In this document: positions 8,799-10,470 of the stretch, in pieces
Layout: each line of letters opens with the position of its first letter
How positions within the stretch are numbered: the stretch's first letter is position 1
From: a virus
Lineage: Duplodnaviria > Heunggongvirae > Uroviricota > Caudoviricetes
Virus record (IMG/VR): IMGVR_UViG_2579778660_000002
Direction: 5' to 3' (one strand)
Length of the DNA stretch: 19,645 nucleotides
Notes under the pieces: model-generated
Database searches by the model: none
Told to the model about the DNA's origin: nothing
What the model saw: only the letters and a program-made list of their open reading frames with translations
Program-made: the position numbers and the translations under genes

Positions 8799-9881
8799 TT
8801 AGAACTGGTAAACCATACCTACAGCAACGATATCATCGGTAGCAACGCCAGATGCTTTCGTGAAATCGCTCTTATCAATCAGGTTGATTTTGTAGTCAAC
8901 AAAAGTGGACATATTTTTGTTGAAGTAATAGGTTGCACCTACATCAACATATTCAACCAGGTCCTGATCACCCCAAACACCCAAGTCTTTTCCTTTAGAA
9001 TGCAGGTAAGCAACGGATGGACGCAGGCCGAAGTCGAACTGATATTGTGCAACAGCTTCGAAGTTTTGTGCTTTGTTGGCAATATGGTTATTACCAAAAA
9101 CAGTCATGTTCTGGGTTTCAGAATAGGTGGTGGCCAGATAGATGTTGTTCGCATCATATTTCAGACCAGCTGCCCATACTTCAGCATTTTGACCAGAAGC
9201 ATTCAGACCGTTGTTACCGTAGATAACCTGATTATTAGTGCGATCAGATTTAGCATAGGTTGCACCCACGCCGAATCCTTCATACTCATAAGTAGTTGAG
9301 AAACCGAAACCATCGCCATTAGCTTCAGTTACTTCATTTCGGTCATTTTTGCCCTGATACTGAGCTGCAAAGTTCAGGCCATCAACCAGACCAAAGAAGT
9401 CGTTGTTACGATAAGTTGCAACACCTGTGGTGCGACCAGTCATGAATACATCTGTTTGGGTCCAGGTATCGCCACCGAATTCTGGCAGAACGTCGGTCCA
9501 TGCACCGATGTCGTATGCTACACCGTAGTTACGGCCGTAATCGATGGAGCCGTAGTCACCGAATTTCAGGCCAGCGAAGGCAAGACGGGTTTTATCTTTG
9601 GAGGAACCTTGAGATTCAGCGCGGTTGCCTTTGAATTCATATTCCCACTGACCGAAACCAGTCAGTTGATCGTTGATTTGGGTTTCACCTTTGAAGCCAA
9701 GACGGGCATAAGTAGTATCACCATCATCTGCATCATTAGAGGAGAAGTAGTGCTTGGCATTAACTTTCCCGTACAGATCCAGCTTGTTACTGTCTTTATT
9801 ATAAATTTCAGCTGCCTGAGCAGACATCGCCATCAGTACTGATGCAGCTACAGCAGAAATTGCCACTGTTAATTTTTTCAT
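8799..9881 (-). CDS. Phage-encoded general porin of the OmpC/OmpF family (NmpC/Lc-like)
   Basis: 360-aa ORF, signal peptide [24 protein letters not shown]-terminal ...[12 protein letters not shown] at 9879-9881 with AAGGG upstream; resembles recalled NmpC/Lc porins of DLP12/PA-2. Confidence 0.85.
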
Positions 9882-10251
9882 CGTGAGCCCTTTTTTTTGA
9901 ACTATTATTAAAAAATGATGTCACTGCGCGATAAATATTCATCTAATCAATGTGATTATTTCAAGATGTAAGTTTTAGTTTCTCGTTTGATTTGTGAAGT
10001 AGATCTCTATTTTTATCTGAACTTTTTTCTATCGAATCCTATTCATGGCTCTTGGCTGAATAAAAATAAATCTATTAGCCAATTTATATTAACGGCTGTT
10101 ATTTATAAGTGCTCTATAATTTGAAGGTTCAATTTAAACCGGCTAAAAATAACACTGGAAATTATTTATTGGTTATTTGTTGAGATTTTCTTATGTATTT
10201 GTAGTGGTGTTTTCAATACTCGGTAGCATTCTCGCAAATATCATTTAGTGG

Positions 10252-10280
10252 TTTACGTACGTAAAAAATTGGTTATGCTG
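10252..10280 (+). promoter_or_regulatory. Candidate late promoter (PR'-like): -35 TTTACG, 16-nt spacer, -10 TATGCT
   Basis: Hexamers read by eye about 30 nt upstream of the terminator hairpin; architecture promoter, short leader, terminator typical of lambdoid late regions; not verified. Confidence 0.25.
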
Positions 10281-10310
10281 TTAAGAGTGGTTACTTCGTC
10301 ACACAGCTTA

Positions 10311-10342
10311 AACCCGCCGTCGAGCGGGTTTTTCCATTTTTT
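10311..10342 (+). terminator. Intrinsic terminator upstream of the lysis cassette (tR'-like)
   Basis: AACCCGC-cgtcga-GCGGGTT hairpin followed by TTTTCCATTTTTT. Confidence 0.6.
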
Positions 10343-10470
10343 GAGTCTCGATATTAGCTGATAACCCAATACCTGAGTTATTCACTGACTCCGAGTCTGT
10401 TACGTTTCTGCTTTTTTGCGATACGTTGTATTCCCTCAATTTACACCCGCTTTGTCTGCGAGGTGGGGTT

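Follow-up and report, generated by a model that had tools for sequence, protein, structure and literature searches.

An intact NmpC/Lc-type porin gene in reverse orientation between a truncated Q gene and a late-promoter-like leader in a defective lambdoid prophage carried by Escherichia coli

The virus record IMGVR_UViG_2579778660_000002, whose entire length of 19,645 nucleotides is referred to here as the window, represents a badly decayed, defective lambdoid prophage situated next to ybhC in an Escherichia coli resembling avian-pathogenic E. coli (APEC) O78. On its minus strand, at 8799-9881, it carries an intact gene for a general porin of the NmpC/Lc type which, judged by its sequence, its position and both of its regulatory flanks, is an intact allele of the Lc porin of phage PA-2 and the NmpC porin of the K-12 prophage DLP12. 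It is very probable that this gene forms a self-contained moron, possessing a promoter of its own and a 3′ untranslated region (UTR) resembling the RNA IpeX, and that it sits between the antiterminator gene Q and the late promoter pR′. The module would amount to approximately 1.64 kb (8611 to approximately 10250) in reverse orientation, inserted between the stop codon of a Q gene of the Q21 family and pR′.

The porin gene and its product

The open reading frame (ORF) of the porin runs from ATG to TAA over 360 codons with no frameshift or internal stop, and its product matches the Pfam family Porin_1 (PF00267) over the full profile (positions 1-337 of 337, E-value 3.6e-152). The first 23 codons (9813-9881, minus strand) encode a signal peptide, beginning with MKK and ending with AQA before the residues AE, which is the same as that annotated for lc in the PA-2 record J02580 and leaves a mature protein of 337 amino acids. 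A preliminary description of this DNA had proposed a complete porin with a signal peptide, which holds in both respects. The solved structures of OmpK37, OmpC, OmpK36, PhoE and OmpF match the protein with E-values of 1e-115 to 1e-135, far beyond chance, and it also possesses the PEFGGD motif of the L3 constriction loop and the C-terminal YQF, both of which are invariant in a five-porin alignment. By homology, the product would be exported via the Sec pathway, with its 23-residue signal peptide cleaved after AQA, and would assemble in the outer membrane into a trimeric general-diffusion pore with a 16-stranded barrel, as suggested by the structure matches and by 62-64% identity to chromosomal porins.

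At the amino acid level the porin shares 92% identity both with Lc of PA-2 and with the IS5-interrupted NmpC of DLP12, and it occupies the same slot as in these two elements, in agreement with the earlier proposal of an OmpC-family porin at the NmpC/Lc moron position. Identity to OmpC, OmpF and PhoE of K-12 is 64, 62 and 64%, respectively. The gene has 100% DNA identity to that of the RefSeq protein WP_000737263.1 in APEC O78.

It had also been suggested that alignment to NmpC, Lc and OmpC would identify loop differences, and such differences were found. Lc and the window porin differ in 35 alignment columns, 24 of which fall in three blocks, at residues 182-187 (with a 3-residue deletion), 216-231 (with a 2-residue deletion) and 263-267, while residues 1-181 contain merely two substitutions. 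In the five-porin alignment these blocks coincide with columns rich in insertions and deletions among OmpC, OmpF and PhoE, and, going by the OmpF and OmpC structures, they are presumably the surface loops L4, L5 and L6. With the loops placed in this way, the pore-lining part of the porin would be conserved and its exposed part would be the part that varies.

Upstream region and candidate promoter

The putative regulatory region of the porin gene (9882-10250, minus strand) is AT-rich, with a GC content of 0.29 compared with 0.441 for the whole window, and contains a candidate promoter and a CRP-like site at 9990-10010. The gene had been credited with an AT-rich upstream region of 544 bp; the base composition stands (GC content 0.331 over 9882-10425), but the length does not, as the spacer between porin and holin is 589 bp when measured to the holin ATG at 10471. 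That start is the one used for essD in RefSeq, with the Pfam match to P21 holin S beginning at residue 5, whereas position 10426 is the first TTG of a mechanically called ORF. Small ORFs of 37-57 amino acids within the spacer found no support as genes, though some phage records annotate "hypothetical proteins" there.

The upstream spacer has a mean identity of approximately 98% in a three-way alignment with PA-2 and DLP12. A 2024 study of K-12 mapped the nmpC promoter (PnmpC), from which transcription begins at a G, to the 199 bp next to the ATG and described it as activated by Crp and repressed by OmpR, IHF and MprA (PMC11677980). The gene is also among the targets of RybB, and in K-12 it is as a rule kept silent by IS5 (PMC3333887). 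J02580 is annotated with two CRP sites, which correspond to 9990-10010 and 10286-10306 of the window. A candidate porin promoter would consist of a −35 hexamer TTGAAA (9963-9958), a 17-bp spacer and a −10 hexamer GAATAT (9940-9935), with transcription starting at about the G at 9929 or 9927; relative to such a start, the first CRP site would be centred at approximately −72, a class I position. The module is accordingly pictured as having its own sigma-70 promoter in the 29%-GC region, of the kind that in K-12 responds positively to Crp and negatively to OmpR, IHF and MprA. By analogy, its activity in the lysogen may be expected to require neither Q nor N nor the repressor, each of which has been deleted or truncated in this prophage. 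As the porin would have a promoter of its own, the truncation of Q should not affect it.

The 3′ untranslated region

Downstream of the porin stop codon lies a 3′ UTR (8634-8798, minus strand) with approximately five hairpins and an intrinsic terminator, delimited by folding, a terminator scan and identity to DLP12 and PA-2. Its fold has a minimum free energy of −60.6 kcal/mol (z = −8.1), a stability reached by none of 200 shuffled sequences, and the terminator, read on the minus strand, is formed by a stem at 8661-8644 followed by a T run. The Q-porin spacer as a whole (188 bp) is approximately 95% identical, over 187 nt, to the quuD-nmpC spacer of DLP12 and to PA-2, and the 165 nt of the UTR segment are 95% identical to DLP12. 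Reviews describe IpeX as a 167-nt RNA of DLP12 which is produced within the porin transcript, under the promoter of the phage porin gene, and which represses ompC and ompF (PMC12197685, PMC5069750). We take the UTR of the window to be the counterpart of the DLP12 segment that presumably yields this small RNA. By analogy with IpeX, which lowers OmpC and OmpF in K-12, the 3′ UTR of the porin mRNA (8798 to approximately 8634) may double as a regulator of host porins.

Two inverted repeats were noted here. The first (8623-8636/8780-8793; 14 nt, 93% complementary) brackets the whole 3′ UTR, while the second (8719-8737/8982-9000; 19 nt, 84% complementary) pairs the 3′ UTR with the porin codons that specify the motif SKGKDL, which is conserved in OmpC, and could be either a pairing site or a product of chance. 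RNAduplex comparison of the 3′ UTR with the ompC, ompF, phoE and own porin mRNAs gave energies no better than those of dinucleotide shuffles, the method being unsuited to this question in that it ignores intramolecular structure.

Expression of the porin

Expression would add a pore to the outer membrane and, if the K-12 analogy holds, reduce host porins, with altered permeability and altered phage and colicin receptors as the outcome. For PA-2 and DLP12, expression in the lysogen together with lowered OmpC and OmpF is known. In lysogens of PA-2, Lc replaces OmpC, the PA-2 receptor, and in this way protects against superinfection; literature searches on PA-2, OmpC as a receptor and the exclusion of superinfection yielded no usable result. 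For the window, the data show the integrity of the gene, its family and position, the conservation of its two flanks, the structure of the RNA and the homology of the pR′/tR′ leader, but expression itself, its effect on physiology, the hexamers of the porin promoter, the geometry of the CRP site and the identification with IpeX are inferred.

A number of points weigh against this reading of the module as a whole. The candidate porin hexamers, with 5 of 6 and 3 of 6 consensus matches, were not called by a consensus promoter scan. A CRP consensus search of the window with up to three mismatches gave 73 matches compared with 83 expected from shuffled sequence; the motif alone is uninformative and the CRP assignment therefore rests on the J02580 annotation and the K-12 study (PMC11677980). 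A search of Rfam over 8200-10750, at the gathering threshold and with E-values of up to 5, found nothing relevant to the porin flanks, its yield being sub-threshold chance matches such as Trp_leader (20.8 bits against a gathering score of 41). There is no IpeX family in Rfam, and the IpeX assignment is taken from identity to DLP12 together with statements in reviews. The pR′ and tR′ features of phage 933W, with which the leader upstream of the porin is compared below, are themselves annotated as "putative". Finally, an intact nmpC in E. coli B is reportedly quiescent under laboratory conditions, as attributed to Prilipov et al. in 1998, and an intact gene therefore does not guarantee a protein.

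It may be asked whether the porin gene is intact yet transcriptionally quiescent, its 29%-GC region being silenced (e.g., by H-NS), so that the decaying prophage would carry it as a neutral passenger which adds nothing to the envelope. In favour of this, the AT content upstream is markedly high, much of the prophage around the gene has decayed, the word "quiescent" is applied to nmpC in the title of the 1998 article of Prilipov et al., and K-12 commonly has nmpC inactivated by IS5 with no growth defect (PMC11677980). However, the K-12 promoter region, which is approximately 98% identical to that of the window, is the main driver of transcription of the IS5 transposase, with a mapped start (PMC11677980). 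The ORF, the signal peptide and both flanks have remained intact despite the loss of most prophage genes, which suggests purifying selection, and the concentration of differences from Lc in three putative surface-loop blocks is the pattern expected of an exposed, selected protein. Quiescence is therefore considered unlikely.

In addition to ompC, ompF and phoE, strains of this lineage possess an intact porin gene of phage origin. Were the self-contained module expressed, the porin and its IpeX-like 3′ UTR could change the permeability of the outer membrane, the amounts of host porins and the receptors displayed by avian-pathogenic E. coli, which would be of relevance when interpreting ompC/ompF mutants or phage-resistance phenotypes. 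Little significance may attach to it beyond correct annotation.

The Q remnant and the late promoter

Beside the porin lies a remnant of a Q21-family antiterminator gene of the quuD type (8391-8610, plus strand), as the preliminary description had stated. Aligned with quuD of DLP12, the alignment beginning at 8391, it keeps the last 73 of 127 codons, the N-terminal approximately 54 codons having been deleted; it matches PF06530 over positions 56-118 of 118 (E-value 2.6e-19), and RefSeq labels it a pseudogene "missing N-terminus". The related claim that the porin had lost its Q context is correct for the 5′ end of Q, which is truncated, but not for the 3′ end of Q and the entire Q-porin spacer, which are intact and share the approximately 95% identity to DLP12 and PA-2 given above. 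The deletion junction was placed at approximately 8284-8391, where the DNA on the right-hand side of ral continues as a quuD-type Q gene from about its codon 55. Besides truncating Q, this deletion eliminated N, cI, cro, O, P and the nin genes, and with them the immunity region and the replication genes, and the prophage is therefore without a repressor and without a functional antiterminator.

A Q cassette usually has the order Q, pR′, pause element and terminator (10.1101/651190), and pR′ was therefore first expected beside the Q remnant, with the porin convergent to it. The earlier description of the porin as divergent from the late promoter was accordingly doubtful to begin with, but it was upheld by the region on the other side of the gene. 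Between porin and holin there is a late-promoter-like leader (10251-10343, plus strand), with a −35 hexamer TTTACG (10252-10257), a 16-bp spacer and a −10 hexamer TATGCT (10274-10279), each hexamer matching at 4 of 6 positions. These are followed by the block TAAGAGTGGTTAC and by a tR′-like intrinsic terminator (stem at 10310-10331 and a T run) that was called on the plus strand. In a distant search with the spacer, 10251-10333 matched hundreds of records of Shiga toxin (Stx) phages directly after their Q genes, and in the 933W record Y10775 the match covers the features "promoter, putative, homologous to pR′" and "terminator, putative, homologous to tR′". The block TAAGAGTGGTTAC is invariant across the window, PA-2, SfII, mEp460 and 933W, and the Q proteins associated with the leader all belong to PF06530. 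A late promoter located between porin and holin and pointing away from the porin, to which the porin is divergent, is supported by this homology.

The competing arrangement places pR′, in the manner of lambda, 21 and 82, in the segment 8611-8700 that directly follows the Q remnant, with late transcription running antisense through a convergent porin and the element at 10251-10343 being merely a second terminator or leader. The Q-porin spacer does hold a TTGAAA...TAATAT pair and a plus-strand hairpin at 8754-8787 followed by TCTTTT. However, a consensus scan found no plus-strand promoter in 8611-8798, and the hairpins of this spacer read better as the 3′ UTR and terminator of the minus strand, while the sole segment homologous to an annotated pR′/tR′ is 10251-10333. 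In phage SfII the leader stands immediately before the lysis genes and is parted from a PF06530 Q by reverse-strand cargo, and in mEp460, too, it comes after cargo on the reverse strand that lies downstream of such a Q. A pR′ beside the Q remnant is thus quite improbable, and this placement was rejected.

With the late promoter on the lysis-gene side of the porin, cargo can be accommodated between Q and the late genes without antisense transcription from pR′. As Q is truncated, transcripts from pR′ should stop at 10331-10343. The late cassette has no intact cognate Q and cannot switch itself on; without a compatible Q provided by another prophage, the lysis genes should remain silent. Between the tR′-like terminator and the holin start, the 16 bp at 10408-10423, CTGCTTTTTTGCGATA, are present in the window and in PA-2 but absent upstream of essD in the DLP12 of K-12.

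Naming of the porin

The naming of this porin is inconsistent, as it is "ompC: porin OmpC" in RefSeq/PGAP and "OmpD" in several phage records, against identities of 92% to NmpC/Lc and 64% to OmpC. The RefSeq name arises because the NCBIfam subfamily model "porin OmpC" is just passed, with 515 bits compared with a cutoff of 484; scores are below the equivalog cutoffs for both PhoE and OmpF. That the gene should be the chromosomal ompC of the cell, as the PGAP name and the passed cutoff would have it, is hardly conceivable and was refuted, the porin being no closer to K-12 OmpC than to PhoE, far closer to Lc of PA-2, and located between the prophage Q and S genes and not beside micF/rcsD, where K-12 ompC adjoins micF. 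The label "porin OmpC" could mislead surveys of porins or of antibiotic permeability.

Recurrent reverse-strand cargo downstream of Q

Other lambdoid phages were found to have reverse-strand genes in a comparable position. SfII (locus L012, 1767-4308) has two ORFs of unknown function on the reverse strand between its PF06530 Q and a pR′/tR′-like leader, and mEp460 (locus L013, 1259-3295) has a single such ORF of 308 amino acids, also of unknown function. In Lambda_ev087 (locus L008, 1337-2395) a reverse-strand gene for a Blc lipocalin follows a homologous Q gene. The arrangements in SfII, mEp460 and the window suggest that the gap between Q and pR′ is a recurrent insertion slot, and if this is so, reverse cargo could be expressed in the lysogen without disturbing the control of the late genes.

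Tentatively, and with somewhat less than even confidence in the two propositions taken together, the variable blocks of the porin, set in a barrel and a regulatory region that otherwise hardly vary, may reflect diversifying selection on surface exposure and the Q-pR′ gap may be a general slot for reverse-oriented cargo. Were there diversifying selection, NmpC/Lc alleles would give lysogens differing susceptibilities to phages, colicins or antibodies.

Prophage context and lysis genes

In APEC O78 the prophage has the gene order ybhC, int, xis, exo, a bet remnant, kil, cIII, ral, the Q pseudogene and the porin, continuing to the right of the porin with essD, rrrD, rzpD, bor, ybcV, ybcW, ylcI and remnants of packaging and tail genes. 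The location at ybhC is one which we take to be the lambda attachment site. The porin had been described as prophage-borne, and its neighbours in the window bear this out, with int, xis, exo, kil, cIII and ral to the left, S, R, Rz and bor to the right, and the whole adjoining ybhC. At the start of cIII (7414-7472, minus strand) the Lambda cIII thermoregulator element of Rfam (RF01804) is matched over its full length (88.5 bits, E-value 9e-21); the early-left region is genuinely lambda-like.

The lysis cassette (10471-11641) is of the phage 21 type. It comprises an S21-type holin of 71 amino acids with an MKSM dual-start motif (10471-10686, plus strand; Phage_holin_2_1, E-value 2e-35), which is a homologue of essD and is so named in RefSeq, a lysozyme (rrrD; 10686-11183, plus strand; Phage_lysozyme, E-value 8.4e-46) and an Rz protein (rzpD; 11168-11641, plus strand; Phage_lysis, E-value 2.8e-54). 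The hydrophobic N-terminus of the lysozyme resembles a SAR signal-anchor. The cassette is followed by a second moron, the serum-resistance lipoprotein gene bor (11673-11966, minus strand). A literature search on quuD together with essD found nothing.

The 2.1-kb block 8600-10700 is 100% identical in APEC O78 and in several isolates from poultry, pigs, dogs and humans. Of 5,426 complete E. coli genomes, 2,404 covered at least 80% of a Q-porin-holin query, as did 36 phage records, with identities of 99.3% in the active phage ev243, 97.9% in the active phage PhiR70_1 and 92.7% in the 1986 record of PA-2 lc. In comparison with APEC O78, the window is without an IS2 element (at 3067-3073) and without a 4.0-kb block (at 14162-14163) that contains the small terminase gene in its 3′ part, remnants of terminase and tail-tip genes, lom, and the tail-fibre gene at its start. 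The exact arrangement of the window was not found in the complete genomes searched; among the matches listed, the best align in two to four pieces over a longer span.

Comparison with known systems

The closest relatives of the porin module are found in PA-2 and DLP12. Lc (protein 2) of the lambdoid phage PA-2 (J02580) has the same orientation and the same position between Q and the lysis genes, with a length of 365 amino acids compared with 360 in the window; PA-2 is an active phage, whereas the element of the window is a defective prophage. The cryptic prophage DLP12 (qsr′) of K-12 shares the gene, its promoter region and its 3′ UTR, and is flanked in a similar manner by quuD on one side and essD-rrrD-rzpD-bor on the other. 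However, nmpC of K-12 is broken by IS5 after codon 346 and its quuD is full, while the window has an intact porin and a Q truncated at its 5′ end. The title of one reference reports DLP12 as overlapping the tRNA gene argU, in contrast to the prophage of the window, which adjoins ybhC.

The window and the Q cassette of 933W (Q933, pR′, tR′) both have a Q of the PF06530 family and are homologous in the −10 region of the promoter, in the block TAAGAGTGGTTAC, which is transcribed first, and in the terminator AACCCGCCG...GCGGGTTTTT. The promoter of 933W overlaps the end of Q, its leader abuts Q, and the cargo (tRNAs and stx2) lies on the forward strand downstream of tR′, whereas in the window 1.64 kb of reverse-strand cargo part the truncated Q from pR′.

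The chromosomal porins OmpC, OmpF and PhoE, as well as OmpK36 and OmpK37 of Klebsiella, share with the window porin the Porin_1 fold family, the length class, the PEFGGD motif and the C-terminal YQF, but the latter is prophage-encoded and stands at the 62-64% identity noted above. Activation of ompC and ompF is OmpR-dependent. Unlike these two genes, porins of the window type are reported to be activated by Crp and repressed by OmpR (PMC11677980).

The gene, its position, its regulatory region and the effect on OmpC and OmpF are already known (J02580 annotation; PMC11677980; PMC12197685; PMC5069750), the exact porin sequence is already in RefSeq, and near-identical cassettes are present in sequenced phages. 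Mildly new relative to these systems are the location of the cargo in the gap from Q to pR′, the reappearance of this slot with other cargo on the reverse strand, and the allelic variation restricted to loops.

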